Below, in pieces: positions 1,963-61,713 of a stretch of 64,000 nt of DNA. The stretch is from Candidatus Fervidifonticultor tertius (GTDB lineage Bacteria; Sysuimicrobiota; Sysuimicrobiia; Sysuimicrobiales; Humicultoraceae): the NCBI GenBank assembly GCA_031459235.1, contig JAVKIY010000001.1, forward strand, positions 56,708-120,707, in the 5' to 3' direction. Made by a program: the position numbers and the translations under genes. The notes below the pieces were generated by a model that worked only from the letters and a program-made list of their open reading frames with translations, did no database searches and was not told where the DNA came from. Numbering within the stretch: the stretch's first letter is position 1; each line of letters starts with the position of its first letter.

Positions 1963-3147
1963 TCAGGGCGCGGCGAACAGCCCGCCGGCCAGGGCGGCGA
2001 CCAACACGATCAGCCACGACGGCTGACGCCACAGGACCAGCAGCCCGAACGCCACGAGCGCGATCGCGAAGTCGAGCGGCCCTGCGATCGCGCTCGTCCA
2101 CACGGGATGGTACAGCGCCGCCAGCAGCAGCCCGACCACGGCGGCGTTGATGCCGCGCAGCGCGGCCCGGAAGCCCGGGCGGGCGCGGAGCTCGTTCCAG
2201 AACGGCAGCGCGCCAATTACCAGCAGGAACGACGGCAGGAAGATCGCCGCGAGCGCGACCGCGGCCCCGGGCAGTCCGCCCGGGCCGCCGGGCCCCACAC
2301 GCATCACCGCGCCCAGGTAAGCCGCGAAGGTGAACAGCGGACCGGGCACCGCCTGGGCCGCGCCGTAGCCGGCGACGAACCGGTCGGCACTGACCCAGCC
2401 GGGCGAGACGACCTCGGCCTGGAGCAGCGGCAGCACGACGTGCCCGCCGCCGAAAATCAGCGATCCCGCGCGAAAGAAGCTGTCGAAGACGGCGAGCGTG
2501 GGACTCGCGCTCACCTGCCGGAGGAACGGGAGCCCCACGAGCAGGGCGACCAGGATCACCCAGGCCACGAGCGCGCCGCGGGGGCCGACTGGCGCGACCA
2601 TGAAACCTCTGGACAGAGCGGGCGCCGGCAACAGGCGGCTCCCGACGAGCCCGGCGGCGACGAGGATCGCGACCTGCGTGACCGCGGTGGGCCAGAGCAG
2701 CGCGGCCAGGGCGGCCAGCCCGGCGAGCGTCGCGCGCTCACGGTCCGGGGTCAGCGCGCGCGCCATGCCCACCACGGCGTGGGCGACGACGGCGACCGCC
2801 GCGATCTTCAGCCCGTGCAGCCAGCCGGCGCTGGCGACGCCCAGCGCCTCGACGCCGAAGGCGAAGGCCACGAGCAGCGCCGCCGACGGTAGCGTGAACC
2901 CCAGCCACGCGGCGAGCCCGCCGGCCAAGCCGGCCCGTGCCATGCCGATCGCGATGCCGACCTGGCTACTCGCCGGCCCGGGGAGGAACTGGCAGAGCGC
3001 GACCAGGTCGGCGTAGGCGTCGTCGGCGATCCACCGCCGTCGCCGCACGTACTCGTCGTGGAAGTAGCCCAGGTGCGCGACCGGACCGCCGAACGAGGTG
3101 AGGCCGAGCCGCGTGGCCACCGCGAGCACTTCGAGCGTCCGTCTCAT
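1963..3147 (-). CDS. chrA: chromate transporter ChrA family
   Basis: Polytopic membrane protein; N-terminus MRRTLEVLAVATRLGLTSFGGPVAHLGYFHDEYV is the ChrA signature; two-fold internal repeat. Start chosen at internal ATG (3145-3147) rather than ORF-track start. Confidence 0.75.
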   Translation of the reverse strand: MRRTLEVLAVATRLGLTSFGGPVAHLGYFHDEYVRRRRWIADDAYADLVALCQFLPGPASSQVGIAIGMARAGLAGGLAAWLGFTLPSAALLVAFAFGVEALGVASAGWLHGLKIAAVAVVAHAVVGMARALTPDRERATLAGLAALAALLWPTAVTQVAILVAAGLVGSRLLPAPALSRGFMVAPVGPRGALVAWVILVALLVGLPFLRQVSASPTLAVFDSFFRAGSLIFGGGHVVLPLLQAEVVSPGWVSADRFVAGYGAAQAVPGPLFTFAAYLGAVMRVGPGGPGGLPGAAVALAAIFLPSFLLVIGALPFWNELRARPGFRAALRGINAAVVGLLLAALYHPVWTSAIAGPLDFAIALVAFGLLVLWRQPSWLIVLVAALAGGLFAAP

Positions 3148-3460
3148 GGGGTTGGCTTGACGGTACTCCCCCGGCAGGGCCCTTCCTCCCCGCACCGCGG
3201 CGCGATGCGGTTTGGACGGGCTTGCGGCCGGGTAAAGCGTCTTGCGAGGAGGTGCCATTCCCTATCGTCAGGTCTGACCCCGTGCGGCGGGCCTGCCGTT
3301 GTGGTAGAGTATTCGCAGCACGAGGCGATGAGGCTCGCCCCAACCGCCGCCACCGGCTGATAGCCTCTACCCTGCGCGGGTGGAGGCGTTTTGTTTTGCC
3401 ACGCGGTCCCCCGGCGCGGGCGTCCGGCGACGTCTGTCGCGTGACAGGAGGGATCGTGCG

Positions 3461-4633
3461 ATGACCGACGCCTCGATCGCGATGGCCATGGGGCTGCTGA
3501 TCTTCCTGGCCACCGTGATCTCCGTCGAGCTGGGCATCTCCGTCGCCCTGATCGAGATCTGCCTGGGCGTGCTGGCCGGCAACGTCCTGGGCCTGCAGTC
3601 GGCGCCCTGGATCGACTACCTGGCCGGATTCGGCAGCATCGTGCTCACCTTCCTGGCCGGCGCCGAGGTAGACACGCGCCTGCTGCGCGAGCAGTTCAAG
3701 GCCAGCGTGCTGATCGGCGGCCTCTCGTTCCTGCTGCCGTTTCTGGGAGCGTGGGCCTTCGCGCTCTGGGTGCTGGGTTGGGCCCCGGACGCGGCGAAGA
3801 TCGCCGGCGTGGCCCTGTCCACGACGTCGCTGGCGGTCGTCTACGCGGTGCTGGTCGAGACGGGCCTCACGAGCACCCCCCTGGGAAAACTGATCATGGC
3901 CAGCACGTTCATCACCGACTTCGGGACCGCGGCGGCGTTGAGCGCCCTCTTCATCAGCCCGACGCCGTGGATTGTGGCCTTCCTCGCCGTCTCGGTAGCG
4001 ATCATCGTCGCGATGCCGCGGCTGCAGCCGTGGTTCTTCCGCCGCTACGGGAATCGCGTCATCGAGCCCGAAATCAAGGGGGCGTTCGCGGCGTTGCTGG
4101 CCCTCATGTACTTCGGCCGTCTGGCGGAGAGCCACGCGGTGCTCCCGGCCTTCGTCCTGGGGCTGGCGGTCTCCAACGTGTTCGCGGCGCACCGCGCACA
4201 ACAGCAGCGTTTCCGGGTGGTGGCCTTCGCCATGCTGACGCCCTTCTTCTTCATCAAGGCGGGCATGAACGTCGGCCTCGGGGCGGTCTCCGCGAACCTG
4301 GCGGTGCTGGGGCTGCTGCTCGCGGTGAAGATGGCGACGAAGTTCATCGGCGTGCTGCCCCTGGCCAGGCGGTACGTCGGGCCCCACGCCATGTACACGA
4401 CCCTGCTGATGAGCACCGGGCTCACGTTCGGGACGATCTCATCGCTGTATGGCCTGCAGGCCAATATCCTCGACCAGACGCAGTTCTCCCTGCTGGTGAC
4501 CACCGTCATCCTGAGCGCGGTCGTCCCGACGGTCATCGCCCAGCGCTTCTACGATCCGCGTCGGGCCACAGCGGGTGCGGCCCCGACGGCCGGTCCCCTC
4601 ACGCTGGCGCCGGCGGAGGAAGGAGACGAGTGA
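3461..4633 (+). CDS. cation:proton antiporter (Na+/H+ exchanger, CPA family)
   Basis: About 12 TM helices, KefB/NhaP-like N-terminus; start ATG 3461 preceded by AGGAGGGA; stop overlaps next gene (ATGA). Confidence 0.7.
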   Translation: MTDASIAMAMGLLIFLATVISVELGISVALIEICLGVLAGNVLGLQSAPWIDYLAGFGSIVLTFLAGAEVDTRLLREQFKASVLIGGLSFLLPFLGAWAFALWVLGWAPDAAKIAGVALSTTSLAVVYAVLVETGLTSTPLGKLIMASTFITDFGTAAALSALFISPTPWIVAFLAVSVAIIVAMPRLQPWFFRRYGNRVIEPEIKGAFAALLALMYFGRLAESHAVLPAFVLGLAVSNVFAAHRAQQQRFRVVAFAMLTPFFFIKAGMNVGLGAVSANLAVLGLLLAVKMATKFIGVLPLARRYVGPHAMYTTLLMSTGLTFGTISSLYGLQANILDQTQFSLLVTTVILSAVVPTVIAQRFYDPRRATAGAAPTAGPLTLAPAEEGDE

Positions 4634-5070
4634 TGGAGATCACGCACATCCTGATCGCGCTCGACGGCTCCGAGCTGGGCCGCAGGGCCATGGAGGCCGG
4701 CATCGACGTGGCGCTCCGCTACCGGGCCCGGGCGACCGTCCTCACCGCGATTCAGCATCCGGCCTACGCCGCCACGGTGGGCGAGGTCGAGGAGGCCGAT
4801 GCGGAGCAGCGAGCCTTCGCGGAGCGAGTGCAGCGCGAGGCCGTCGAGGCCGCGCGGATGCGCGGCTTGGACGTGGCGACGGCAATCGTATCCGGCCACC
4901 CGGCCGAGGCGATCGTGGACTACGCGCGCCAGCACGCCGTGGACCTGATCGTCATGGGGCACCGCGGGCTGTCGAACCTGCGGCGGTTCCTGATCGGCAG
5001 CGTCACCGACCGGGTGGTGGACCACGCGCCCTGCATGGTCCTGGTCGTAACCGAGCGCCGGCCGCGGTGA
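4633..5070 (+). CDS. universal stress protein (UspA family)
   Basis: 146 aa, MEITHILIALDGSELGRRA...VDLIVMGHRGLSNLRRFLIGSVTDRVVDHAPCMVLVV; translationally coupled to the antiporter. Confidence 0.75.
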   Translation: MEITHILIALDGSELGRRAMEAGIDVALRYRARATVLTAIQHPAYAATVGEVEEADAEQRAFAERVQREAVEAARMRGLDVATAIVSGHPAEAIVDYARQHAVDLIVMGHRGLSNLRRFLIGSVTDRVVDHAPCMVLVVTERRPR

Positions 5071-6260
5071 GCAGGGCATCAGGGCGCCCCCCGGCTCCCG
5101 CGCCGCGCGCCGCGCTGCGATTCGTCGTGCTGCTTGGCGTCGTCAGCCTCTTCGCTGATGCGACCTACGAGGGCGCCCGCAGCATCACGGGGCCCTACCT
5201 GGGCCTGCTCGGCGCGAGCGCCGCGACCGTCGGCGTCGTCGCCGGGCTCGGCGAACTCATCGGGTACGGGCTGCGCCTGGCCTCCGGATACCTGGCCGAT
5301 CGCACCCGGCGCTACTGGGCGATCACGATCGTCGGGTACGCCGTCAACCTGGGCGCGGTGCCGCTGCTTGCGCTGGCCGGGCACTGGCCGATCGCCGCGG
5401 CGCTGATCGTGGCCGAGCGCGTGGGCAAGGCGCTGCGGACCCCGGCGCGCGACGCGATGCTGTCGCACGCCACGCAGCAGATGGGCCGCGGCTGGGGCTT
5501 CGGCGTCCACGAAGCGCTCGACCAGGTGGGGGCGGTGCTCGGCCCGCTCGTCGTGGCGGGCGTCGTCCTGACCCGCTCGTCGTACCGGCTGGGGTTCGCG
5601 GTGCTGGCGATTCCCGCGGCGCTGGCCCTGGCCGTGCTGGTCGTCGCGCGGTTCCTCTCCCCCCGCCCCCGTGACCTCGAGACCGCTGCGCCGCGCCTCG
5701 AGGCCGCCGGGCTGCGCCGACCGTTCTGGGTCTACCTGGCCGGCATGGCACTGGTCGGCGCCGGCTACGCGGACTTCCCGTTGATCGCGTTCCACCTGGG
5801 CCAGCGGGCCGTGGCGCCGGCCGCGGCTATCCCGGTGCTCTACGCCGTGGCCATGGGCGTGGACGCGCTCGCGGCGCTGATCTTCGGCCGCCTTTTCGAC
5901 CGTCACGGGCTGCCCGTGCTGACGGTCGCCGTGCTCGTCTCCGCGCTCTTCGCGCCCCTGGTGTTTCTCGGCGGGTTCGCGGCCGCGGCCGCGGGCATGG
6001 TGCTGTGGGGCGTGGGCATGGGCGCGCAGGAGTCCATCATGCGCGCCGCGGTCGCCGGGATGGCGCCGCCCGACCGGCGCGGCGCCGCCTACGGCATCTT
6101 CAACACCGGCTACGGCCTCTGCTGGTTCCTCGGGAGCGCCGCGATGGGCCTGCTGTACGGCGTCTCGACTTCCGGGCTGGTGCTCTTCTCGGTGGCGGCG
6201 CAGCTCGCCGCGATTCCACTGCTCCTGTGGGTCGGCCGCGTTATGCGGGGCGCCCGCTAG
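5067..6260 (+). CDS. MFS transporter
   Basis: About 12 TM helices, two 6-TM halves, MFS loop motif (GYLADRTRRY); GTG start overlapping uspA stop (GTGA). Confidence 0.65.
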   Translation: MSRASGRPPAPAPRAALRFVVLLGVVSLFADATYEGARSITGPYLGLLGASAATVGVVAGLGELIGYGLRLASGYLADRTRRYWAITIVGYAVNLGAVPLLALAGHWPIAAALIVAERVGKALRTPARDAMLSHATQQMGRGWGFGVHEALDQVGAVLGPLVVAGVVLTRSSYRLGFAVLAIPAALALAVLVVARFLSPRPRDLETAAPRLEAAGLRRPFWVYLAGMALVGAGYADFPLIAFHLGQRAVAPAAAIPVLYAVAMGVDALAALIFGRLFDRHGLPVLTVAVLVSALFAPLVFLGGFAAAAAGMVLWGVGMGAQESIMRAAVAGMAPPDRRGAAYGIFNTGYGLCWFLGSAAMGLLYGVSTSGLVLFSVAAQLAAIPLLLWVGRVMRGAR

Positions 6261-6997
6261 CCCTGCGCCCTCCACACCATCCCCGGCGCGCCGACGAACT
6301 TGTAGACGACGCGTGTCCACGACGCGGCCTCTGCCTCGGTGATCTTCTCGTGGTGGAAGCGGTAGTCGTGCTTGCGCCAGAACTCGGCGAGGCCCTGGGT
6401 CAGCGTCTCCATCAACCCGCGCTCGGTGCGGACCAGCCACTCGAGGCTGTCGGGGTCGTCGGCCGACGCGGTGACCGCGATGAGGTGGGGAAAGCACAGC
6501 CCCAGACTGGCCTCGTAGCGGGCGCGGAAGTCGGCGTCGTCCAGGGCCCCGGCCGTCGCCGCGACGTTGCGGTCCTCGGCCTCCCACTGGCTCTGGCAGG
6601 CCAGGCAGGGCCGGCGGCGTTCCAGCCACTGTCCGACCTCGCGCGCCAGGACCTCTTCGTTCTGCGGCCCGAACAGCGTCCGTCTTCTCCGCCCGGCCGC
6701 GACCGCGAGTCGGTGAGCGGCCATGGCGGAGAAGGCGTCGAGGAAGTCCTCGAGCAGGTGCCGGTAGACGATCGCGATCCCGGTGGCGCTGTCCCTGGCC
6801 CGGGTCAACTGCCACGCATGGGTCGAGCAGAACCCGCGCGCGGCGATGAGGTCGGTGCGGGTCCACGGGTCGTTGACCCGCTCGTAGAGGAAGCCCCACA
6901 GGTATCGTTCCACGGTCTCCAGGCTGAGGTGGCAGATCGCGCAGTGGTCGGGGTGCAGCGCGCGGTAGATGCCGTGGAACAGCGCGTCACGCTGCAC
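6257..6997 (-). CDS. hypothetical protein with two tandem CxxC...C-x2-H putative zinc modules
   Basis: 246 aa; HCAICHL...FCSTHAW and CLACQSQ...CFPHLI arranged as an internal duplication; GTG start 15 bp after upstream gene; no family assignable from memory. Confidence 0.45.
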   Translation of the reverse strand: MQRDALFHGIYRALHPDHCAICHLSLETVERYLWGFLYERVNDPWTRTDLIAARGFCSTHAWQLTRARDSATGIAIVYRHLLEDFLDAFSAMAAHRLAVAAGRRRRTLFGPQNEEVLAREVGQWLERRRPCLACQSQWEAEDRNVAATAGALDDADFRARYEASLGLCFPHLIAVTASADDPDSLEWLVRTERGLMETLTQGLAEFWRKHDYRFHHEKITEAEAASWTRVVYKFVGAPGMVWRAQG

Positions 6998-7011
6998 GGT
7001 ACGATGCCCCG

Positions 7012-7443
7012 CTAGCCAGCGGCCCTGTCGCGGTGGCCCGCGCGCGCCTGGGCCGTGCCGCCATCCCCGTCGTCCAGACGGCGGAGTTCCTCACGCAGCC
7101 GGTCCCGTCGGGCTCGCTGGTCGGCGAGCGAGCGCTGGAACTGACGGTTGCTCGCTTCCAGCCCGGTCACGTTCAGCCGCAGCGAGCGGATGGCCTCGTC
7201 GGCGATGTACGCTCGGTGACGCAGCACCGCGAGCTCGGCCCTGGCGGCGCTCCACTCATTGTGCGCCGCATCAGGGCCCATGGAGGACACGGTCATCCGA
7301 TCTGCGCCGTAGGCCAGCAGGATCTTGACGCCCTCCTCGACCGTCCAGCCTTTCTCTTCGACGAGCGCCCGGAACCGTTCGCGCAGGTGCTCGGGGACGG
7401 TCACCCTGACCCGCTCCAGCCTCGGGAAAACATAGTCGCTCAT
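7012..7443 (-). CDS. hypothetical protein, N-terminal ribbon-helix-helix-like domain plus C-terminal coiled coil
   Basis: 143 aa; VRVTVPEHLRERFRALVEEKGWTVEEGVKILL has beta-strand/helix/helix RHH pattern; heptad-rich C-terminus; ATG overlaps stop of upstream paralog (ATGA). Confidence 0.45.
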   Translation of the reverse strand: MSDYVFPRLERVRVTVPEHLRERFRALVEEKGWTVEEGVKILLAYGADRMTVSSMGPDAAHNEWSAARAELAVLRHRAYIADEAIRSLRLNVTGLEASNRQFQRSLADQRARRDRLREELRRLDDGDGGTAQARAGHRDRAAG

Positions 7444-7940
7444 CGCGGTCCCTCGCTCACCCCGAGCACACGTCGCAGCCACCCGACCACCCCCCTGTGG
7501 GTCGCGGCGTCCCCGGGGGACGGGCCTCCGCCGTTGCCCGCCCCCGAGGCCACCGCCAACCTTGCTGCGAGCGCAGCGTTCTCCTCCCGGAGGGGACGCA
7601 TGGCGCGGCGGTTGGCGTAGAGCTCGGCCCCAAGCTCGTGGACGGTCTGGCCCAGCTCGGCCATCACCTTCTCCGCGGCGATGGTCCGAGCCCTCATGGA
7701 CACCAGCAAGGCCTGCGCCTCCCGGCGTTTCAGCTCCTGCTTCCTCGCCTCGGCCTCGTCGGTCGTTTGGCCATCCAGAGCCTTCCACTCCGCCTCGTCG
7801 GCGACGAAGGCGTCGAGGCCGCGCTCGAGCAGCCACGCCATTGCATCCCGGACATCGGGACCGGCAGCGTCCATCGCGCGGCGTATGGCCCCCCAGTCCT
7901 CGTCCACGAGCTCGACCTCGATGACCCACGGCGCGGCCAC
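7440..7940 (-). CDS. hypothetical protein, paralog of 7012-7443 (RHH-like N-terminus plus coiled coil)
   Basis: 166 aa; VIEVELVDEDWGAIRRAMDAAGPDVRDAMAWLLERGL then long charged coiled coil; GTG start with GGGGGAG RBS. Confidence 0.45.
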   Translation of the reverse strand: MAAPWVIEVELVDEDWGAIRRAMDAAGPDVRDAMAWLLERGLDAFVADEAEWKALDGQTTDEAEARKQELKRREAQALLVSMRARTIAAEKVMAELGQTVHELGAELYANRRAMRPLREENAALAARLAVASGAGNGGGPSPGDAATHRGVVGWLRRVLGVSEGPR

Positions 7941-7966
7941 GGTCTTCTCCCCCCGAGAAGCAGAAA

Positions 7967-7994
7967 GCTCCTACCGGCACGAGCCAGTAGGAGC
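7967..7994 (-). promoter_or_regulatory. perfect 8 bp inverted repeat (GCTCCTAC-N12-GTAGGAGC) in the 5' leader of the RHH operon, followed by a U-rich run
   Basis: Read directly; lies between predicted promoter and the GTG at 7940; candidate operator or attenuator hairpin. Confidence 0.35.
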
Positions 7995-8056
7995 TATCAG
8001 CCTCGTCTCGCAAGGCGATTCGACGAGCTCCATCGCCTATGCAATTGTCTTGTCTC

Positions 8057-8085
8057 AAAGATACGCCGCGCCCCGCGCCCTGTCA
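8057..8085 (-). promoter_or_regulatory. sigma70-like promoter (-35 TTGACA, 17 bp spacer, -10 TATCTT) for the 7940-6257 operon
   Basis: Reverse complement of 8080-8085 is TTGACA and of 8057-8062 is TATCTT; locally lower-GC segment. Confidence 0.35.
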
Positions 8086-8340
8086 ATGCGCACGTCAAGT
8101 GTCCTGTGTACTCACATTCCACAGAGGACGCCCCTGCCTCTGCATGCTGAGGTAGTGCACGACCGTCTTGGTGATGCGGTCGCAGCCGGTATCGAGCACG
8201 GTAGACACCGACAACGCCCCGCCAACCGAGCTGCTCTGCGACGGCTCAAACCGGCACCTACGCGGCGCTCCCGATGCAACTCTTCGACTACGAACACGCG
8301 TGCCGGGTCCTTCACGCCGCCGATCACACAAGAAAGCGCC

Positions 8341-10059
8341 TCAGCCCACGGCGCGTGTGCGCATTGCGTCAGCGACCAGCGCCACCGGAACCGACCCGTA
8401 CGACAGCAACCGGTCGTGGAAGTCGCGGAGCACGAACCCCGGCTGCTGCGCAAGATCACGGCGCAGCGCATGGATGAGGTGTGTGCCCACCAGGTACATG
8501 AGCGCCGCGCCCGGGAACATACTGTTCTTCACGGCTTCCGCCCGCGCGGCCTCGGGCGACATACCGGCGCGGTCGCGGTAGGTGTCGGCGGCCCGCTCGA
8601 GCGTCCACTCGCCGCGGTGGAGCCGCACGTCGACGACCGCCCGCGCGGCCATACGCAGTCGTGAGTGGGCCTGCGCCAGTTGCTGCAGCGGGTCGAGGAA
8701 ACCGATCTCTTCCATAAGATCCGTCGCGTAGCACGCCCAGCCCTCGGCCATCGTCCCGCCGCAGAACATGGCGATCCGGCTCGCGCAGTCAACCGCCGCG
8801 ACCCGCCCGATGCGAGACCCGGCGCGGTGGTACGCATACCAGTTCTGCACGTGATGGCCCAGCGCGCCGTGGTGGATCACGTGATTGAGGGTGATCACGC
8901 CGTCGTTCGTCGCGCGCAGGCGGCGCAACTGCTCCGCGGGCGGCATGTCGGGGTCGATCGGTGTCACCAGGTAGTCCACCACGGCCATCCGGTCAAACGG
9001 CGCCGGCGCACGGTAGCACAGGAAGTAGAGCGACGGTGCGGCTTCGCGCGCCCAGCGCGGCTGGGGCACGTAGCGGATTGGGTAGTCGGGCCAAGTGACC
9101 AGTCCGTGCCGCTCGGCCTCTGCGCGGACGGCGTGCCAGACCTCCGTGTACCGCTCGTAGTAGCGGTCGGCGGGCGGGTGGCGGTCCGCGAGCGCGGCCA
9201 GGGCCTCGTGCCAGGACGCAAAGCCGAGCGCGGCCGCGCCTTCGCGCAGCCGCGCGTCCCACAGCGCCAGATGCTCCTCGCCGAGCGCCACCACGTCGTC
9301 GGCAGACATGTCAAGCCAGTGCCCGCGCCGAAGCAGCAACTCCAGCGCCTCAGCGCCGCACGCGTAGCCGTCGGTGGCACATGCCAGCAGTTCGTCCCGC
9401 AGGTATCCTTGCAGGCGGCGGAACGCCTGGGCGGCCGACGCTGCGGCGTCGCGAAACCGTGGGTGTGTGATACCCGCCTCGCGCGCAAGTATCTCGGCGC
9501 CGCGCTCGAAGAACGCCAGCGCGCCGTCGCACTCGCGGATGGCTCGCTCGGTCCAGGCCCGCGGCGCCCGGCGGACGGTCGAGGCCGCCTGCGCCAGAAA
9601 GCCAGGGATAGCGAACATGCGCATGACCGCGGCCTCAACCCGATCGCGTAGCGGTGCGAACGGCCGCAGGAACAGCGCCAGCACGCCGAAGACGGCCTCG
9701 CCGGTGTAGACGCAGGGATTGCCCAGGTGGAAGTGAGTCGAGCCGTACTCCCACCGCTGCACATCGAGGAACCCCTCGGCCAGCCGGCGATCGAGCGCCT
9801 CGGCTTCGGTCAGCGGCTCACGCGGCAGGCTGCAGAATCGTACCCGCAGGGTCTCGATTGCGCGCACGGTGTCGCCGGCCGCGGCCTCGGAGAAGTCGGG
9901 CAGCCGGTGGTCGTGGTCGTGCACGCCGATGAACGTCGCGTTGATGGGATACGTAGCGTAGTACCACGCGAAGAAGTCGTCAAGAGCCGTGGCGAGCGCC
10001 GGCGCACCGCACACAGCCGCTCCGTCCTTCGGTGTACGATGGCGGTCGAGGTCAGTCAT
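8341..10059 (-). CDS. DUF885 domain-containing protein
   Basis: 572 aa; length and N-terminal FFAWYYATYPINATFIGVHDHDHRL region recalled as DUF885-like; overlaps next gene start by 8 nt. Confidence 0.6.
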   Translation of the reverse strand: MTDLDRHRTPKDGAAVCGAPALATALDDFFAWYYATYPINATFIGVHDHDHRLPDFSEAAAGDTVRAIETLRVRFCSLPREPLTEAEALDRRLAEGFLDVQRWEYGSTHFHLGNPCVYTGEAVFGVLALFLRPFAPLRDRVEAAVMRMFAIPGFLAQAASTVRRAPRAWTERAIRECDGALAFFERGAEILAREAGITHPRFRDAAASAAQAFRRLQGYLRDELLACATDGYACGAEALELLLRRGHWLDMSADDVVALGEEHLALWDARLREGAAALGFASWHEALAALADRHPPADRYYERYTEVWHAVRAEAERHGLVTWPDYPIRYVPQPRWAREAAPSLYFLCYRAPAPFDRMAVVDYLVTPIDPDMPPAEQLRRLRATNDGVITLNHVIHHGALGHHVQNWYAYHRAGSRIGRVAAVDCASRIAMFCGGTMAEGWACYATDLMEEIGFLDPLQQLAQAHSRLRMAARAVVDVRLHRGEWTLERAADTYRDRAGMSPEAARAEAVKNSMFPGAALMYLVGTHLIHALRRDLAQQPGFVLRDFHDRLLSYGSVPVALVADAMRTRAVG

Positions 10060-51562: not shown

Positions 51563-52144
51563 CTACTCCCACAGGATGCGCGCCACCTCCGCGGCCAGCA
51601 TCGGGCGCGCCCGCTCCAGGCGTGAGGCCAGGGTGTTGGTCACGACGAACCGGCCGTCGGGGGTGGCGACCCGCGCGCCACCGCGCACGGCCGGGTCGGT
51701 GCGGACCGTGACCTCCGCCCGGCCGCGCACGACCGCCTCGGCGGCGGCCGCGTCGTCGGGGTTGACCGTGACCACCGCGGGGCCCCGGACCCCGCGCAGC
51801 CCCTCGTCGATGAAGGCCCGCAGCACATCGGGATAGCGCTGCGCGTCGCCCGCCACGCGGGCCAGCTCCTCCTCGGCCTGCGCGAACACCCGGGCGATCT
51901 CCTCTTCCTTCGCCTGGAGAATCAGGGATGCCGCGCGGAGCTGCGCGGTGCTCTGCGCCTTGACGAGCGCCGCACGGGTCTCCGCCTCGAGGCGCTCCCG
52001 CGCCGCCGCGAGGTAGGTCTCCGCCTCGCGCCGAGCGCGGTCGCGGATCTCCTCCGCCTGCGCCCGCGCGTCGGCGAGCACCTGCTCACGCTCGGCCGCG
52101 GCCTCGCGCTCGAGCAGCGTAATGAGCTCGGAGGACGTCGCCAC
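51563..52144 (-). CDS. atpE: V/A-type ATP synthase subunit E
   Basis: 193 aa charged helical protein at the E position. Confidence 0.7.
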   Translation of the reverse strand: MATSSELITLLEREAAAEREQVLADARAQAEEIRDRARREAETYLAAARERLEAETRAALVKAQSTAQLRAASLILQAKEEEIARVFAQAEEELARVAGDAQRYPDVLRAFIDEGLRGVRGPAVVTVNPDDAAAAEAVVRGRAEVTVRTDPAVRGGARVATPDGRFVVTNTLASRLERARPMLAAEVARILWE

Positions 52145-52151
52145 CGCAGCC

Positions 52152-52481
52152 TCAGATCTTGCCGAGGATGAAGAACGCCACCAGGAAGCCGAAGATGATC
52201 ATCGTCTCGGGCAGGACCAGGAAAATGAGCATCTGGCCACCGATCTCCGGCCGCTCCGCCATCGCTCCTGCGGCGGCCGCGCCGATGCGCGACATCGCCC
52301 ACGCGGTGCCCACCGCACCGAACGCTACCGCGAGCGCGGCCGCCAGGCCGAGCAGGCCGTGCGCCATGGTAATCGTCCGGGCACCCTCGGGCGCCGCCTC
52401 CGCGGCGCACGCCGCCGACGCGCCGAGCAGCACCAGGGTCGCCACCGCGACCACGGATGAGAGCTTCTTCAACCTAGTCAC
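52152..52481 (-). CDS. atpK: V/A-type ATP synthase proteolipid subunit K
   Basis: Hydrophobic hairpin protein with conserved Glu (LVLPETMII); the listed GTG sits immediately after the AGGAG RBS, so true start is probably the TTG at 52472, 1 nt after the atpI stop. Confidence 0.7.
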   Translation of the reverse strand: MTRLKKLSSVVAVATLVLLGASAACAAEAAPEGARTITMAHGLLGLAAALAVAFGAVGTAWAMSRIGAAAAGAMAERPEIGGQMLIFLVLPETMIIFGFLVAFFILGKI

Positions 52482-54423
52482 CTCCTGTTTTCTGGAGCGG
52501 GCGGTACGAGTTGCCTGTTTCGTCGTGGTACTTCATCTTCGTTAGGAACTCCACCCAGTTGAGACGGGCGGGCTGAATGAGGTGGCCCGGCAACGTGAAC
52601 AGGAAGAAGATCATCTGTATCAGGATGCCGGCGATGATGCCGACCCAAACCGGCCCCAGCCGCCCTCCGAGTTCGTTCGACACGTTCGCGAGCACCGCCG
52701 CGGCCAGGCCGACCCCGAACAACCGCGCGTAGGACAGGACGTTCCCCATGCCGGAGATCGCCTCGAGCAGCCACATGGCCGCGAAGCGGTCCAGGGCGAA
52801 ACCGGCCAGGAAGAACACGAAGAACGCGATCAGGAGCACCAGCCCGGGGGCGAAGAAGGTCCGTGGCAGCTCGTTGCCCATCGCGCCGAGCAGGACGACC
52901 AAGCCGACCACGCCGCAGATGAGGGCGAGGGATTCGAGCACGCCCACCGTGTGCCGGTGCCGCAGGGCGATGAGGAGATGCAGGATGTTGCCCAACGTCA
53001 CCTGGACGACACCCAGCGCGACCGCGAACTTGAAGAACGCGGTGGCGAGCTCGATGCGGTGGAAGATGGGATGCCACCCCGTGGCGTGCTCCACCAGATC
53101 GCCGAAGATCTCGAGGTAGAGCACCCCGAAGAGCATCGTCCACACCGCCATCACCCGGATGATCCACGAGACGTCCGCCAGGACCGGCGGCGTCATGCGC
53201 AGACGGACTACCGGCACGATCCACGCCGCACCCCCGCGCGCCTTGTTGCGCAAGAACCACCCGACAGAGAACAGGATCGCCCCGTACGCCACGTCGCCGA
53301 TGACGATCCCGACGAACAGCGGGAAGAACAGCGCCAGGGCGAGCGTGGGGTCGAGCGACCCATAACGCGGCGGCTTGAACAGCCCAAGCAGCCGCTGGAA
53401 AGGCTTGATCGCGGGCGGGTTGTCCAGCAGCACCGGCACCTCGGCCGCGCGGTGCGGATCGGCTGGCGCCTCCTCCACCACGACATCGCCGCCGAAGCGC
53501 GCGCGCAGCGCCGCGCGCAGGTCGCCGACCTGGGCCGTCGGCGTCCAGCCGTGCAGGATGAAGACGTAGTGGGACGCGCCGAGCTGGGCCGCCGCGTGGA
53601 GCTGCGCGAGCCGGTCGGCGACCAGCGCCCGCAGCCCATCGATCACCGGGCGGTGGCGGCGCGCGGCCTCGGCGAGCGCGGCCTCGGCCTCGGCCCGCTC
53701 GCCCGGGAGCGCGGCGCGGCGTTGCTCCATCAGCCTGATCGCCTCGGCCGGACCGCCCTCGGCGTACCGCGCGGGCAGCCGCAGCTCGGCGATGCCGGCC
53801 CGGGAGAGGAACCCGCGTACCGCGTCTGCGTCCCGCTTGAGGAACGCGACGACGACCCCGATCTTGCCCTCGTCGATCGCCCGGCTGACGACCTCGACGC
53901 GGCCGTCGGTCAGCTCGCGGAGCTGGTTGTGCACCGCGGCCACGACGGTCAGGTCGCGGCCGCGCAGGATGAAGCCCACGCTCTCGAGCGCGCGGCTGCC
54001 CGCCAGGGCGTCCATCAGCGGGGCGAGGGCGCGGACCGCGCCCTCGTACGTGCGGATGAGCTCAAACTCCTCGTCCAGCTCCAGCCGGCGGCGGCTCAGC
54101 CCGTGGACCTCGGCCTCCACCGCGGCCACGGCGGCTTCCACCGCGTCCAGGTCGTCGGCGGCCGGCAGCGCCGGGACCGCGGCGGCGGGCTCCCCGCCCG
54201 AGGGCGGGAGCAGCCCGGCCAGGCCATCGAGGCGCGCGTGCAGCGCCTCCAGCCGCGCCTGCTCCGCGCGCGCATGGTCATCGAGGGCCAGGGCGCGGAT
54301 GGCGTCGTCGTCGGTCTCGATACGGTCGATGTGCACCGCACCCACGCGCTGCACCTCGTCGATGACCCCGTTGAGCAGCCGCCTGGGGCCGACGATCAGC
54401 AGGCGGGACATCTCAACGATCAT
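52474..54423 (-). CDS. atpI: V/A-type ATP synthase subunit I (a-subunit homolog)
   Basis: 649 aa; N-terminal soluble coiled-coil half and C-terminal multi-TM half. Confidence 0.85.
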   Translation of the reverse strand: MIVEMSRLLIVGPRRLLNGVIDEVQRVGAVHIDRIETDDDAIRALALDDHARAEQARLEALHARLDGLAGLLPPSGGEPAAAVPALPAADDLDAVEAAVAAVEAEVHGLSRRRLELDEEFELIRTYEGAVRALAPLMDALAGSRALESVGFILRGRDLTVVAAVHNQLRELTDGRVEVVSRAIDEGKIGVVVAFLKRDADAVRGFLSRAGIAELRLPARYAEGGPAEAIRLMEQRRAALPGERAEAEAALAEAARRHRPVIDGLRALVADRLAQLHAAAQLGASHYVFILHGWTPTAQVGDLRAALRARFGGDVVVEEAPADPHRAAEVPVLLDNPPAIKPFQRLLGLFKPPRYGSLDPTLALALFFPLFVGIVIGDVAYGAILFSVGWFLRNKARGGAAWIVPVVRLRMTPPVLADVSWIIRVMAVWTMLFGVLYLEIFGDLVEHATGWHPIFHRIELATAFFKFAVALGVVQVTLGNILHLLIALRHRHTVGVLESLALICGVVGLVVLLGAMGNELPRTFFAPGLVLLIAFFVFFLAGFALDRFAAMWLLEAISGMGNVLSYARLFGVGLAAAVLANVSNELGGRLGPVWVGIIAGILIQMIFFLFTLPGHLIQPARLNWVEFLTKMKYHDETGNSYRPLQKTGGD

Positions 54424-54444
54424 CCGCTCAGCCTCCGCGCACGC

Positions 54445-54801
54445 TCAACCGCCAACGACGCGCTCGACGACCGCGCGGACCGCGGCCGCCGTGCGGCCCG
54501 CGGCCTGGCGCCGCAGCGCCTCGACCTCCGCGGTCGCCTTCGCTTCGGCGTCCTGCTGGACGCGCGCGGCTTCGGCCGCGGCGCGTTCGCCGTACTCGGC
54601 GGACAGCGCGGCGGCCCGCTCACGGGCCTCGCGGAGCATCCGCTCGGCGTCCACGCGGGCCTGGGCGATGAGCGCCTCGGCCTCGCGCCGCGCCGCGCCG
54701 ACCTGGGCCTGGAGTTCACGTTCCTTCTGAGCGATGAGGTGCAGGAGATTGTCGTGACTGTGGCGGTCGCCCCCGTGCCCTGCTGGCTTCTGCGCCCCCA
54801 T
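54445..54801 (-). CDS. atpG: V/A-type ATP synthase peripheral-stalk subunit G/H
   Basis: 118 aa coiled-coil protein from ATG 54801; first gene of the operon, as in Thermus atpG. Confidence 0.5.
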   Translation of the reverse strand: MGAQKPAGHGGDRHSHDNLLHLIAQKERELQAQVGAARREAEALIAQARVDAERMLREARERAAALSAEYGERAAAEAARVQQDAEAKATAEVEALRRQAAGRTAAAVRAVVERVVGG

Positions 54802-54826
54802 TTGTGACGGTCCCCTTGGGAAAGCC

Positions 54827-54850
54827 TCACACGAAACCCCCAGGACAGGC
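54827..54850 (-). terminator. GC hairpin (CCCCCAGG-N8-CCTGGGGG) followed by UUUCGUGUG between nuoN and the V-ATPase operon
   Basis: Read directly; could end the nuo transcript or structure the ATPase 5' UTR. Confidence 0.3.
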
Positions 54851-54971
54851 GCCCTGGGGGCCCACTGCAGGTCGAGGATAGCAGAGGGTCCCCTGACCGT
54901 CAAGGCAAGGCGGATGCGGTGCGGCGCGGGTTTCCACGCACGGACGGGGCGCCGCGCACGGGCGCGGGCGC

Positions 54972-56411
54972 CTAGAACCGAAGCAGCAGCGACGCCGCGG
55001 ACACCAGGGTGACGAACGGCTGGGGAAACAGGCCGGCGGCGAGCGTGCCCAAGCCGGTGATGCCGAGCGCGAGCTGCAGCGCTGCGGGCTGGCCCACCGG
55101 CCCCGCGGAGGCCGGTGGCATCAGGAACATCGCCCGGATGACCCCCACGTAGTAGTACAGCGCGATCACACTGTTGACCACACCGATTGCCGCCAGCCAG
55201 ATGAGCCCGTTCTGGACCGCCGCCCCGAAGATGTAGAACTTCCCGACGAACCCCGCCGTCGGCGGGATGCCGGTGAGCGAGAGCATGAACAGCGCCATCA
55301 GCCAGGCCAGCGCGGGGGCGCGCTCGCCCAGCCCGGCATAGGCCGGAATGTCGTCGGTGCCCAGGCGCTGGCCCACCGTCACCGCGACGAAGAACGCGCC
55401 CAGATTGGTGAACGCGTACGCCAGGATGTAGTACAGCAGCCCCTGGGCGAACTCACCGGCGTAGGCGGCCACGCCCATGAGCAGGAAGCCGGCGTGCGAG
55501 ATGCTGGAGTAGGCCAGCATGCGCTTGATGTTGCGCTGCGGCAGCGCCAGCAGGTTCCCGACCGTCATGGTGACCGCGGACAGTCCCGCGATCAGCGTGA
55601 TCCAGTCCACCGGCGCCGAGGCGAACGCCACGGCCAGCAGCCGCAGGAGCACCGCGAAGCCGGCGGCCTTGGAGGCGACCGACAGGAACGCCGCGACCGG
55701 GGTGGGCGCGCCCTCGTAAACATCGGGGGTCCACTGGTGGAAGGGGACCATCGAGACCTTGAACCCGATGCCGGCCAGGGCCATCACCAGCGCCACCACC
55801 ACCGCCGGCCGGGGTGCGCCGCTGAGCGCGGAGGCGATCGCGTAGAGGCTCGTCTGCCCGGTGAGGCCGTAGAGGATCGAGAAGCCATAGATCATCACCG
55901 CCGAGGCCCCGGCGCCGAACAGGAAGTACTTGAGCCCGGCCTCGTTGCCCCGGCGGTCCGCCTTGAAGTACCCCGCCATGACGTACGAGCACAGGCTCAC
56001 GAACTCGATCGACAGCACGACCATGATCAGGTCGGCGCTCCCGGCCATCAGGCTGAGGCCCAGCGCGGTGAAGGTGAGCAGGATGTACATCTCGCCTTCG
56101 AACTGCGTCTGCCCCCGCAGCACGTCCATCGCCGAAAGGATCACCAGCACCGTGGACGCGACCGCGACAATCTTGAAGAAGATGGCGAACCCGTCCACGA
56201 CGTAGGTGCCGAAGAAGACCGTCCGCGGCGTGACCCCGACCAGGCCCAGGATGGGCACCAGGCCGAGGGTGAGTCCCGCCGCCGCCGCCCAGCCCACGAT
56301 CGCCTTGCGGCCGCTGGGGACGAACAGGTCCAGCACGAGCAGCAGCAGGCCGAGCCCCGCGAGCCAGATCTCGGGGCTGACGGCCCAGAGGTCCTCAATC
56401 GGCAGCGGCAT
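54972..56411 (-). CDS. nuoN: NADH-quinone oxidoreductase subunit N
   Basis: 479 aa, about 14 TM antiporter-like subunit. Confidence 0.9.
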   Translation of the reverse strand: MPLPIEDLWAVSPEIWLAGLGLLLLVLDLFVPSGRKAIVGWAAAAGLTLGLVPILGLVGVTPRTVFFGTYVVDGFAIFFKIVAVASTVLVILSAMDVLRGQTQFEGEMYILLTFTALGLSLMAGSADLIMVVLSIEFVSLCSYVMAGYFKADRRGNEAGLKYFLFGAGASAVMIYGFSILYGLTGQTSLYAIASALSGAPRPAVVVALVMALAGIGFKVSMVPFHQWTPDVYEGAPTPVAAFLSVASKAAGFAVLLRLLAVAFASAPVDWITLIAGLSAVTMTVGNLLALPQRNIKRMLAYSSISHAGFLLMGVAAYAGEFAQGLLYYILAYAFTNLGAFFVAVTVGQRLGTDDIPAYAGLGERAPALAWLMALFMLSLTGIPPTAGFVGKFYIFGAAVQNGLIWLAAIGVVNSVIALYYYVGVIRAMFLMPPASAGPVGQPAALQLALGITGLGTLAAGLFPQPFVTLVSAASLLLRF

Positions 56412-56420
56412 CGGTGGCGC

Positions 56421-57929
56421 CTACCGCAGGACCGTGACCAGGCTGGCCATGGCGGCGTTGATGACCTCGAGCAGCGGCCGCGGGTAGACACCGAAGACGA
56501 GCATGATGGCCGCGAGCGGCACGAGCGAGACCGCTTCGCGGCCGTCCAGGTCGGGCAGCGCGGCCCACCGTGGGTTCTTCGGGCCGAGGAAGATGCGCTG
56601 GATGGTCCACAGGAACATGGCCGCGGAGAACACGACCCCGGTCACCGCGATCACCGTGAGCTCGGGGAAGATCCCGAACGACCCGACGAAGATCAAAAAC
56701 TCCGCCACGAACCCCATGAGCCCGGGCAGGCCCAGCGAGGCCAGCATCGCCATCATGGTGATCCCGCTGTACCTCGGGAGCACCGCGCCGAGCCCGCCGA
56801 AGTCGTCCACGCCCCGCGTGTGCGCCCGGTAGTCGTAGATGACACCCACGATGAGGAACAGCGCGCCCGTGATGATGCCGTGCGCCACCATCTCGAAGAC
56901 CGCGCCGTTCAGCGCCAGGGTGGCCGCGCCGGCCCGCTCCGGGGCACCCACCGCGCCAGCGGCTGCGGCCACGCCCAGCATCACGTAACCCATGTGGTTC
57001 ACGCTGGAGTAGGCGACCAGCTTCTTGAGGTCGGGCTGGGCCATCGCGACAAGGGCGCCGTAGACCACGCCGATGACCGCCAGGATCGCCACGACGGGCG
57101 CGTACTCCCGGAACGTCTCGGGGAGCATCGGGAGGCTGATCCGCACGAACCCGTAGGTGCCCAGCTTCAGCAGCACCCCGGCCAGGATGACGCTGCCCGC
57201 GGTGGGGGCCTCGACGTGCGCGTCGGGGAGCCAGGTGTGGAACGGCCACATCGGCACCTTGATCGCGAACGCCAGGAAGAACCCCCAGAACGCCAGCGAC
57301 GCCAACAACGGCGCGCGCGCCAGCGGCTGCTGCCCGATCAACTCCAGGATGCCGAACGTCCGCGGCTCCGCGTTGAAGTAGAGCAGCAAGATGGCCAGCA
57401 ACATCGCGAGCGAGCCCACCAGGGTATAGAGGAAGAACTTGATGGCCGCGTACTCCTTGCGCGGGCCGCCCCAGATGCCGATCAGGAAGTACATCGGGAC
57501 GATCGACACTTCCCAGAACACGAAGAACAGGAAGAAGTCCAGGGCGGCGAACACGCCGACCATCGCGGTCTCGAGCAGGAGGAAGAGGAACAGGTACTCC
57601 TTGACGCGCACGTCCACGCGCCAGGAGTAGACGATCGAGAGCACCGTGAGGAGCGTGGTCAGGATGACCAGCGGCAGGCTCAGCCCGTCGATGCCGACGT
57701 GGTAGTGGACACCGATCGCCGGGATCCAGGCGTAGCGCTCCTGGAGCTGCATCTCCGCGCCGCCGACCTGGAAGGGCCCCAGCAGCCACAGGGAGACCAG
57801 GAACGCGAGCGCCGCGGTCGCCAGCGCGACCTGCCGCATCAGGCGCTCCTGGCCCTTGGGGATCAGCAGGACGATCAACCCGCCCACCAGCGGCAGGAAG
57901 ATCGTGATGCTCAACAGGTACCGGTCCAT
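56421..57929 (-). CDS. nuoM: NADH-quinone oxidoreductase subunit M
   Basis: 502 aa antiporter-like subunit. Confidence 0.9.
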   Translation of the reverse strand: MDRYLLSITIFLPLVGGLIVLLIPKGQERLMRQVALATAALAFLVSLWLLGPFQVGGAEMQLQERYAWIPAIGVHYHVGIDGLSLPLVILTTLLTVLSIVYSWRVDVRVKEYLFLFLLLETAMVGVFAALDFFLFFVFWEVSIVPMYFLIGIWGGPRKEYAAIKFFLYTLVGSLAMLLAILLLYFNAEPRTFGILELIGQQPLARAPLLASLAFWGFFLAFAIKVPMWPFHTWLPDAHVEAPTAGSVILAGVLLKLGTYGFVRISLPMLPETFREYAPVVAILAVIGVVYGALVAMAQPDLKKLVAYSSVNHMGYVMLGVAAAAGAVGAPERAGAATLALNGAVFEMVAHGIITGALFLIVGVIYDYRAHTRGVDDFGGLGAVLPRYSGITMMAMLASLGLPGLMGFVAEFLIFVGSFGIFPELTVIAVTGVVFSAAMFLWTIQRIFLGPKNPRWAALPDLDGREAVSLVPLAAIMLVFGVYPRPLLEVINAAMASLVTVLR

Positions 57930-57957
57930 CCGCCTCCCGTCCCCCTCCGCCCGGCCG

Positions 57958-59901: not shown

Positions 59902-59904
59902 CGG

Positions 59905-60216
59905 CTACCACTTCATGACGTTGATCTCGTCGACGTGGACGGTCTCCAGGTTCCGGTAGGCCGACATGACCAGCGCGAGACCCACGCCCGCCTCGCAGGC
60001 GGCCAGCGTGATGACCACCAGCGCGAACACCTGCCCGTTGAGCGCCCCGGGGGCGACGTACTTGTTGAACGCCACGAGGTTGATGTTCGCGGCGTTGAGC
60101 ATGAGCTCGACACCCATCAGGATCGCCACCGCGTTCCGCCGGGTGAGCATGGCGAACAGCCCCAGGCAGAACAGCAGCGTCGAGAGGACCAGGAAGTGCG
60201 TCAGGCCCAGCGTCAC
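59905..60216 (-). CDS. nuoK: NADH-quinone oxidoreductase subunit K
   Basis: 103 aa, 3 TM, conserved Glu residues. Confidence 0.9.
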   Translation of the reverse strand: MTLGLTHFLVLSTLLFCLGLFAMLTRRNAVAILMGVELMLNAANINLVAFNKYVAPGALNGQVFALVVITLAACEAGVGLALVMSAYRNLETVHVDEINVMKW

Positions 60217-60226
60217 GGACGCCTCC

Positions 60227-60718: not shown

Positions 60719-60720
60719 GG

Positions 60721-61701: not shown

Positions 61702-61713
61702 GCGCGGCCGGCC

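Follow-up and report, generated by a model that had tools for sequence, protein, structure and literature searches.

Introduction

The crcB-motif RNAs (Rfam family RF01734) are found in 5' untranslated regions (UTRs), carry overlapping terminators and are expected to raise gene expression when their ligand binds (PMC2864571). A transcriptional fluoride riboswitch of this class consists of a pseudoknotted aptamer and an intrinsic terminator (PMC11077080). The genes usually found under such switches are crcB, eriC-F and those for enolase and pyrophosphatase. In Enterobacter cloacae, the FRM operon ppaC-uspA-eno-gpmA-crcB-orf5249, which includes a gene for a universal stress protein (Usp), is controlled by a riboswitch and confers fluoride resistance (PMC5533749). 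Here we analyze three adjacent genes of Candidatus Fervidifonticultor tertius, designated A, B and C, in a 64,000-nt stretch of contig JAVKIY010000001.1 (hereafter the window; all coordinates are window positions unless another locus is named). An earlier reading of this DNA (hereafter the original prediction) took the trio for a small autonomous accessory module of two ribbon-helix-helix (RHH) coiled-coil proteins and a putative zinc protein. According to our analysis, the locus is probably a fluoride-inducible operon, in which A, B and C would form an accessory unit of the fluoride response. It resembles the E. cloacae operon in being multi-gene, switched by an RF01734 element and provided with a Usp gene, whereas its cargo under the first riboswitch consists of three uncharacterised proteins.

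The leader of gene A is a fluoride riboswitch

The open reading frame (ORF) list and the sequence agree with the original prediction on three co-directional genes (Table 1). Genes A and B overlap by ATGA, as had been described; the gap between B and C is 14 nt and not 15. The start codon of gene A has GGGGGGAGAAG directly on its 5' side and a GGAG-type ribosome-binding site at about 7953-7946. The intergenic 400 bp upstream of gene A (7941-8340) has a G+C content of 61.8%, against 70.0% for the window, in keeping with the low G+C content noted earlier. The sigma-70-like promoter in this region, TTGACA-17-TATCTT, matches the consensus at 10 of 12 positions and is the sole such site in 6000-8500, where 0.1 would be expected in shuffled sequences. 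The trio is an operon with its own promoter, and this part of the original prediction stands.

The whole window was scanned with the Rfam covariance models, for which the gathering score of RF01734 is 34 bits. Exactly two matches exceeded the gathering score. Both are RF01734 fluoride riboswitch aptamers, and both lie in 5' leaders on the sense strand. The first, which the original prediction had missed, stands ahead of gene A, on the promoter-proximal side. About 12 nt separate it from the promoter, so that transcription would begin a few nucleotides 5' of the aptamer. With our own covariance model, R1, this aptamer scores 63 bits. Its pairings are GGCG/CGUC in P1, GCCU/AGGC in P3 and a pseudoknot of GGAGC with GCUCC. 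The GCUCC strand is provided by the 3' conserved segment CUGAUAGCUCCUACUGG, its partner GGAGC lies in the P1 loop, and the conserved core GGCGAUGG...CUGAUxxCUCCUAC is present.

The leader palindrome had been described as an 8-bp inverted repeat followed by a U-rich run. The repeat and the run are real, but the repeat is larger: it is a 13-bp stem followed by TTCTGCTTCT, and it is the sole terminator-like site found in the terminator scan. The 5' arm of this terminator, AGCUCCUACUGGC, consists of the same nucleotides as the 3' pseudoknot strand of the aptamer. In the ligand-free fold of the leader, which has a minimum free energy (MFE) of -58.4 kcal/mol (z = -5.0), the terminator hairpin is formed. 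The leader of gene A has the standard layout of a transcriptional fluoride riboswitch, where the bound ligand stabilises the pseudoknot and keeps the terminator from forming (PMC2864571; PMC11077080). In its full-model match, core, covarying pseudoknot, 5' UTR location and terminator-aptamer overlap, the RNA shows no essential difference from the RF01734 transcriptional ON riboswitches; its U-tract is interrupted.

A further pairing was found in the MFE fold at 7946-7962 (minus strand), where CUUCUC and GAGAAG pair across a G5 loop and occlude the Shine-Dalgarno-like GGAG of gene A. This predicted pairing may add control at the level of translation to that exerted by the riboswitch, or it may be due to chance.

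The arrangement is conserved in relatives. The order promoter, aptamer, terminator and gene A was observed in every orthologous trio locus (L005-L010, L013, L006, L014, L016, L018 and L057), with the aptamers, found both by Rfam and by R1, immediately upstream of gene A. In nearly all leaders examined, a TTGACA -35 element is kept at the same position, and a hexamer resembling the -10 element stands at an unchanged distance from the aptamer. The orthologous terminators have the 5' arm AGCUCCU(A/G)CUG and a following U-rich tract, and their stems show compensatory substitutions. Across 22 aptamers, 99% of the cells of P1 and the pseudoknot are paired, against 42-65% in slid controls, and four of the nine P1/pseudoknot pairs have changed on both sides.

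Variant aptamers, in which P3 is enlarged or a hairpin has been inserted, were observed at L011 2634-2711, L012 5861-5938, L017 5858-5938 and L068 4760-4837. They score below the Rfam gathering threshold and retain the GCGAUG...CUGAU core and a compensated GAGGC/GCCUC pseudoknot. Those of L011, L012 and L017 (Anaerolineae) precede tandem pairs of genes of the family of gene C, DUF6062, whereas the variant of Thermomicrobium roseum, described below, precedes a single DUF6062-like gene. It is worth noting that in gene calls the riboswitch can appear, translated, as a false N-terminal extension (...VDSSYWVASRSF...).

We observed directly that the leader matches the aptamer model, that its pairs covary, that terminator and aptamer overlap and that all this is conserved across relatives, and the view that the leader is a fluoride ON antitermination switch is well supported. 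That fluoride is the ligand and turns expression on would follow by analogy with the established behaviour of this riboswitch class. In the mechanism that we propose, transcription from the TTGACA/TATCTT promoter would make the aptamer first. When fluoride is absent, AGCUCCUACUGGC would pair with GCCGGUAGGAGCU to form the 13-bp terminator ahead of the U-rich tract, and transcription would stop before gene A. When fluoride is present and bound via Mg2+, the GGAGC/GCUCC pseudoknot would be stabilised, the 5' arm of the terminator would be held, and transcription would read through into A-B-C.

The original prediction had left two roles for the palindrome, an operator for RHH dimers or an attenuator, and the latter was essentially right. 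Because of the RF01734 match and the compensatory changes of the stem at the RNA level, we concluded that the palindrome is the terminator stem of a fluoride riboswitch and not an RHH operator. This conclusion bears on the reading of the trio as an autonomous cassette, of toxin-antitoxin, partition-like or defence type, that RHH dimers would autoregulate by binding the palindrome. Such a cassette could be compact, with overlapping genes and its own promoter, as this operon is, and the profile of protein B weakly resembles the RHH domain of the RelB antitoxin. However, none of the three proteins matches a toxin family in Pfam, NCBIfam or PADLOC, or any NCBIfam model at all, and none matches a defence model in PADLOC-DB at E ≤ 0.01. 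No ATPase, of the ParA type or any other, is encoded in the operon or its flanks, and the leader repeats belong to the riboswitch terminator. The Pfam search found no integrase or transposase flanking the trio in the window. The phage search gave no homologue, and the plasmid search gave only the non-mobilizable T. roseum megaplasmid. The module co-occurs, moreover, with fluoride-regulon genes across phyla. An autonomous cassette of any of these kinds is accordingly very improbable. In the relative L001, a gene with a weak rve-domain match lies about 0.6 kb upstream of the trio.

A second riboswitch and a convergent transporter operon

The second aptamer found in the Rfam scan lies on the plus strand and also matches the model over its full length. 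It has a compensated pseudoknot, GAGGC/GCCUC, in place of GGAGC/GCUCC, and the 5' arm of its terminator overlaps the 3' end of the aptamer. Downstream are genes for a Na+/H+ exchanger, a Usp and a major facilitator superfamily (MFS) transporter, whose start and stop codons overlap. The operon runs toward the trio, and its MFS gene meets gene C in the palindrome CTAG (6257-6260), to which both stop codons belong. Between the two operons no terminator was seen. Exchanger, Usp and MFS genes also lie beside the trio in relatives. The second riboswitch controls the convergent exchanger-Usp-MFS operon, and the two operons constitute one fluoride-response locus. By the same logic as in the leader of gene A, the second riboswitch and its terminator would switch on this operon when fluoride is present. 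The autonomy originally ascribed to the trio found no support, since the trio is tied into a fluoride regulon with a second riboswitch-controlled transporter operon converging on it.

Unlike the E. cloacae operon, the window locus comprises two convergent riboswitch units, and in place of CrcB it has a Na+/H+ exchanger together with an MFS transporter. The E. cloacae operon, for its part, has no counterpart of the A-B-DUF6062 trio. In relatives of the window locus, pyrophosphatase, enolase and His_Phos_1 genes share operons with genes of the DUF6062 and B-like families. Taken together, the neighbours of these two families (enolase, pyrophosphatase, phosphoglycerate mutase, Usp and CrcB) are the contents of the validated E. 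cloacae operon (PMC5533749).

The AT skew of the plus strand is strongly positive in two parts of the window, 0.44 at 2-3 kb (2001-3000) and 0.16-0.30 over 52-62 kb (52000-62000), both far above the rest of the window. The stretch at 2-3 kb lies inside a chromate-transporter gene (1963-3258, minus strand).

DUF6062 and B-like genes in other genomes

Protein C belongs to the Pfam family DUF6062 (PF19538), which allowed the locus to be compared widely. When one genome of each GTDB species was scanned with a sequence pattern, 51 DUF6062 loci were found; with the metagenome locus L005, there were 52 distinct loci. The counts of neighbours rest on homology searches, as gene calls based on G+C content at third codon positions (GC3) misplaced some starts and strands. 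Genes A, B and C adjoin in the loci of Ca. Sysuimicrobiota despite differing flanks, and the strict A-B-C order is confined to this phylum, some of whose metagenome-assembled genomes (MAGs) are titled "Armatimonadota" by NCBI. The DUF6062 family also occurs in Chloroflexota, Actinomycetota, Fervidibacterota and Armatimonadota. A fluoride aptamer lies upstream on the same strand in 21 of the 52 loci, and these 21 come from Sysuimicrobiota and the four other phyla alike.

By homology search, an MFS gene neighbours DUF6062 in 14 of these loci, a Na+/H+ exchanger gene in 11 and a Usp gene in 10. Pfam scans of the neighbours add CrcB, DUF190, CBS, pyrophosphatase, NhaA and CLC. The riboswitch-linked gene orders range from a riboswitch with DUF6062 alone to operons in which DUF6062 stands between or behind transporter genes (Table 1). 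In L048 (5742-5929), from an actinomycetotal MAG, opposite strands carry one riboswitch each, arranged back to back with about 60 nt between them; one drives a Na+/H+ exchanger gene and the other DUF6062.

Seven distinct contexts of distant B-like members were inspected. Five have a fluoride riboswitch, and four of those five also have a DUF6062 or DUF6062-like gene. The remaining contigs, L063/L064 and L065, are shorter than 1.5 kb and uninformative. In L058, the gene facing the frameshifted A and shortened B genes (6742-8139, minus strand; its own riboswitch 8305-8403, minus strand) encodes a protein of 428-465 aa with at least three complete CxxC...CxxH modules and further CxxC motifs, which matches DUF6062 only faintly (E 0.007). 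The association of DUF6062 with RHH-like coiled-coil proteins persists across gene orders and lineages and is consistently tied to fluoride riboswitches. The trio had been taken for a module, and in the neighbourhoods it proves to be a recurrent one: A, B and C are adjacent across Sysuimicrobiota, and B-like and DUF6062 genes are adjacent in other orders in distant lineages.

The sole plasmid match was the 918-kb non-mobilizable megaplasmid of T. roseum DSM 5159. Here a single DUF6062-like hypothetical gene (TRD_RS12225) is followed by a HEAT-repeat gene and preceded by a variant aptamer with intact core and pseudoknot, which scores 33.9 bits with R1 and 29 bits with the Rfam model, below the gathering score. 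T. roseum is a cultured, sequenced organism, so that a related locus is available for experiments.

The same survey bears on the possibility that the riboswitch is genuine while the trio has no fluoride-specific role and is merely carried along, for example as a set of general stress proteins. Some 30 of the 52 DUF6062 loci have no detectable riboswitch, and general stress genes of the Usp type also belong to the regulon (PMC5533749). On the other hand, riboswitch and DUF6062 are linked in at least five phylum-level lineages, with differing gene orders and partners. The B-like family, moreover, is very small: of 1.84 billion representatives, 67 clusters match it at E ≤ 1e-3. Five of the seven contexts inspected for its distant members have the riboswitch. 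A passenger role thus appears improbable, and we prefer to regard the trio as an accessory unit of the fluoride response.

Two further kinds of gene recur in these neighbourhoods. Genes beside DUF6062 encode small HEAT_2 proteins (Table 1), which often have a double zinc ribbon at the N-terminus, and such a protein may be a fourth component of the module. Genes for MutS_V-only ATPases (about 510-590 aa) occur downstream of DUF6062 or transporter genes. A pair of them, preceded by a small TPR protein gene, lies downstream of the trio in L001/L010, and at least one MutS_V homologue is found at about 8.6-11.2 kb in L014, L016 and L018. The presence of mutS-like genes beside crcB-motif RNAs was noted in 2010 and has been unexplained since (PMC2864571).

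Table 1. Positions and composition of the features in the window and of the related loci
Locus	Feature	Position	Strand	Remarks
Window	Sigma-70-like promoter	8086-8058	-	-35 TTGACA 8086-8081, 17-nt spacer, -10 TATCTT 8063-8058
Window	Fluoride riboswitch aptamer (crcB motif, RF01734)	8046-7981	-	41.7 bits, E 6e-9, model positions 1-64 of 64
Window	Expression platform	7995-7956	-	13-bp terminator stem 7995-7966, loop UCGU, U-rich tract UUCUGCUUCU 7965-7956
Window	Gene A	7940-7440	-	166 aa, GTG start
Window	Gene B	7443-7012	-	143 aa
Window	Gene C	6997-6257	-	246 aa, Pfam DUF6062
Window	Second fluoride riboswitch aptamer (RF01734)	3315-3376	+	42.0 bits, E 5e-9, model positions 1-64 of 64
Window	Terminator of second riboswitch	3363-3398	+	GCCUCUACCC-UGCGC-GGGUGGAGGC, then GUUUUGUUUUG; read from sequence
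Window	Convergent operon	3461-6260	+	Na+/H+ exchanger, Usp, MFS_1; start/stop codons overlap
Window	Na+/H+ exchanger	3461-4633	+	ATG start, AGGAGG ribosome-binding site; Pfam
Window	Usp	4633-5070	+	Pfam
Window	MFS_1 transporter	5067-6260	+	Probable GTG start; Pfam
L044	Gene order			riboswitch-CLC-DUF6062-CrcB
L031	Gene order			riboswitch-CrcB-DUF190-DUF6062
L019	Gene order			riboswitch-MFS-DUF6062-Na+/H+ exchanger-Usp
L052	Gene order			riboswitch-Na+/H+ exchanger-DUF6062
L039, L048	Gene order			riboswitch-DUF6062
L057	Gene order			riboswitch-A-B-DUF6062; second DUF6062 closes convergent Na+/H+ exchanger-Usp-MFS operon
L058/L059	Gene order			riboswitch, frameshifted A, N-terminally shortened B; faces riboswitch-controlled multi-module CxxC...CxxH protein
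L061	Gene order			riboswitch-MFS-...-enolase-His_Phos_1-DUF6062-B-like-B-like, facing riboswitch-DUF6062-HEAT_2-B-like
L060	Gene order			riboswitch-B-like-279 aa-pyrophosphatase
L066	Gene order			riboswitch-DUF6062-B-like-pyrophosphatase-HEAT_2/zinc ribbon-His_Phos_1
L012	HEAT_2 gene	9305-9781		
L021	HEAT_2 gene	6941-7336		
L061	HEAT_2 gene	6432-6803		
L066	HEAT_2 gene	8243-8737		
L068	HEAT_2 gene	5878-6315		

Protein C is a duplicated DUF6062 protein

The original prediction could place none of the three proteins in a named family. For protein C this was not borne out: residues 17-232 match positions 18-234 of the 243-position DUF6062 model with 60 bits (cut-off 27; E 3e-16). The same model matches 20 of 20 homologues of C, and NCBI names C itself a "DUF6062 family protein". 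The predicted internal duplication and the two zinc-type sites were supported. The two halves of C align with their CxxC...CxxH motifs in register (local hhalign alignment, E 5e-5, probability 67.5%), and all eight putative ligand residues (C19, C22, C57, H60, C131, C134, C168 and H171) are invariant in 16 homologues. The model of C is all-alpha, with a mean predicted local distance difference test score (pLDDT) of 86. Neither the profile search of PDB sequences nor the structure search with the model found a relative of C in the PDB. To judge from these motifs, C may bind two metal centres, either Zn or Fe-S, through Cys3His sites, although we propose this with lower confidence. No paper mentioning DUF6062 was found in the searchable literature. 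New in the present analysis are the link between DUF6062 and fluoride riboswitches and, within the protein, its duplicated architecture and its pair of Cys3His sites.

Helical proteins with Cys/His metal sites are known among the zinc-binding anti-sigma (ZAS) domains of RsrA and ChrR, which carry an HxxxCxxC motif. Protein C is like them in its helical fold, in its Cys/His sites and in being encoded beside a putative regulator. It differs in carrying CxxC...CxxH twice, in lacking a sequence or structure match to them and in having no sigma factor nearby.

Proteins A and B as possible distant paralogues

The N-terminus of protein B contains a beta-alpha-alpha-like segment, RVRVTVPEHL...GWTVEEGVKILLAYG (RVRVTVPEHLRERFRALVEEKGWTVEEGVKILLAYG), followed by a coiled coil. 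An RHH start had been predicted for both A and B. For B, the signal is present but sub-threshold: the match to Pfam RHH_5 reaches 18.1 bits against a cut-off of 26, RHH_5 matches are found in 4 of 25 members of the B family (best E 4e-5), and the family profile matches RelB structures weakly (E 0.002-0.006). For A, the prediction found no match, and its N-terminal domain may be RHH-like only as far as its similarity to B suggests.

The top profile hits of B, to ankyrin and DARPin proteins, were rejected as spurious, being a chance resemblance of GWTxEEGVKILLAYGAD to the ankyrin consensus. The motif concerned, GWTVEEGVKILLAYGAD at residues 32-50 (window about 7294-7350), matches designed ankyrins at E 3e-5 and is likely to be a source of false annotation. 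JGI labels some homologues of B "chromosome segregation ATPase" or "RecN", from coiled-coil composition alone.

In protein A, an acidic N-terminal domain is followed by a long helix that spans residues 61-135; a Gly/Pro linker joins this helix to a C-terminal tail, which is cationic and amphipathic. Its AlphaFold2 monomer has a mean pLDDT of 74, and the 75-residue helix 61-135 is modelled at 85-95. Foldseek matches of A to PspA, Vipp1 and ESCRT-III proteins (E about 1.7-5) were not significant. All 12 members of the A family end in a Gly/Pro linker and a W/L/R-rich segment (for example GVVGWLRRVLG; window 7440-7500). The net charge of these tails is 0 to +4, positive in 11 of the 12, with a hydrophobic moment of up to 0.96; for only about half of the family is the amphipathic signal stronger than in shuffled versions of the tail.

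The paralogy of A and B that had been predicted found weak support in the pairwise comparison. BLASTP gives E 0.018, and the profile-profile alignment by hhalign, which runs colinearly along 120 columns, has E 3e-4 and a probability of 39%; iterated jackhmmer searches merge the two families. It is plausible, on this weak support, that A is a distant colinear paralogue of B. Natural gene fusions argue independently for a partnership of the two. In L016 (Ca. Tepidifontimicrobium), A and B are fused in one ORF (5021-5975), and in L014 and L018 a single in-frame stop codon alone stands between them. An exhaustive profile search gave two-repeat proteins of 282-302 aa (P0073, P0087, P0094 and P0126), of which P0073 is an in-frame A-B fusion. 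In another protein, P0095, a B-like domain is fused to HEAT repeats.

Since A and B appear to be paralogous, are adjacent with translational coupling and are fused in some relatives, they may form a hetero-oligomer of diverged paralogues through their N-terminal RHH-like domains and long coiled coils. As the adjacency of the three genes is conserved in different orders, A, B and C would act together. Our leading guess is that A/B and C constitute a regulatory adaptor, which would either bind DNA in the RHH manner or serve as a scaffold tethered to the membrane, its activity being set by the metal sites of DUF6062. Such an adaptor would tune the co-induced ion transporters and fluoride-sensitive enzymes. 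These roles of the proteins are put forward with lower confidence than the riboswitch itself.

A possible DNA-binding regulator or membrane-peripheral scaffold

The RHH domain of P22 Mnt is joined to a coiled-coil oligomerisation domain, and this precedent is consistent with a riboswitch-to-transcription-factor cascade. A and B would then be a heteromeric RHH regulator, made only with fluoride, that represses or activates genes lacking a riboswitch, and DUF6062 would be its metal- or redox-sensitive partner, comparable to a zinc-binding anti-sigma factor. The CopG/RelB-like segment of B fits this explanation: basic residues alternate along its putative strand (RVRVTV), and its helix 2 is capped by GWT. 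The colinear profile match and the natural fusions of A and B fit it as well. So do the Cys3His sites of C, which stand in a helical protein as in RsrA. B also resembles the RelB/CopG proteins in its beta-alpha-alpha pattern, its sub-threshold RHH_5/RelB matches and its long C-terminal helix. The trio differs from them, however, in having no partner toxin and no identifiable operator, and B-like domains differ in their HEAT fusions and tandem duplicates. The fusion in P0095 suggests protein scaffolding rather than a simple repressor, and the RHH signal is below the Pfam threshold in B and absent from A. A cascade of this kind is therefore somewhat unlikely.

Amphipathic membrane-targeting sequences are known in MinD and FtsA, and the Gly/Pro linker and W/L/R-rich tail of all 12 A-family members recall them. 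In a membrane-peripheral complex, A and B would be a coiled-coil scaffold tethered by the C-terminal cationic amphipathic helix of A, which with DUF6062 (and elsewhere HEAT proteins) assists or gates the MFS transporter, the Na+/H+ exchanger, CrcB or CLC; the RHH-like domain would serve for dimerisation only. DUF6062 genes most often adjoin genes for membrane transporters, frequently with overlapping start and stop codons, and in L057 a second DUF6062 gene stands at the end of the exchanger-Usp-MFS operon. Against these points, the tail stands out from shuffled sequences in only about half of the A members, many B tails lack the segment, the match of the A model to PspA/Vipp1 is not significant (E about 1.7), and several DUF6062/B-like operons hold only soluble enzymes (pyrophosphatase, enolase and His_Phos_1). 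A membrane complex is, in our opinion, likewise unlikely, and slightly more so than the cascade.

The data fit a DNA-binding regulator and a membrane-peripheral scaffold about equally. The two are not exclusive, since PutA, an RHH protein, shuttles between DNA and the membrane. More generally, a hitherto unrecognised machine dedicated to the fluoride response might be made up of DUF6062, a protein of the RHH-like coiled-coil type or two (the A and B families) and, often, a HEAT/zinc-ribbon protein of small size, whether as a transcription-factor cascade extending the regulon or as a metal-centre sensor and adaptor controlling co-induced ion transporters. We offer this suggestion only tentatively.

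Several observations weigh against the view that the trio is an accessory unit of a fluoride-inducible operon or that its proteins work as proposed. The U-tract of the terminator in the leader of gene A is interrupted (UUCUGCUUCU). No CrcB or CLC homologue was found in the 64-kb window, nor a DUF190 or MutS_V homologue. Around 30 of the 52 DUF6062 loci have no riboswitch within 6 kb; the family is therefore not exclusively controlled by riboswitches. The leader alignment shows no repeat of operator type that is conserved around the promoters. No RHH match was found for A in the Pfam or PDB profile searches, the acidic character of its putative beta-strand, VEVEL, would disfavour contact with DNA, and its N-terminus is of low confidence in the AlphaFold2 model (pLDDT 43-70) and modelled as helix. 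These last points also tell against an RHH-type cascade. The models of A and C both lack a significant structural neighbour. Finally, the source organism is represented only by a MAG.

Implications for the fluoride regulon

Most of the fluoride riboswitch "super-regulon" beyond the exporters (CrcB/Fluc and CLC-F) and the extra copies of fluoride-sensitive enzymes is functionally unexplained. Baker et al. (2012) reportedly list the riboswitch-associated genes. As far as the searchable literature shows, membership of the A, B and DUF6062 families in the fluoride regulon is undescribed. The regulatory element itself is a new instance of a well-known riboswitch class, and no new principle is involved, but the link is specific and testable. 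Even if the trio should be a stress passenger, the locus at least adds a clean case in which two fluoride riboswitch operons are paired and converge. The present analysis firmly assigns to the fluoride regulon both DUF6062 and an orphan family, very small in number, of coiled-coil proteins of the RHH-like type, in several phyla and several gene orders, and three "hypothetical proteins" gain a physiological context and a testable hypothesis. If the module is indeed a regulator or a transporter accessory, it would represent a new layer in the control of fluoride and pH stress.

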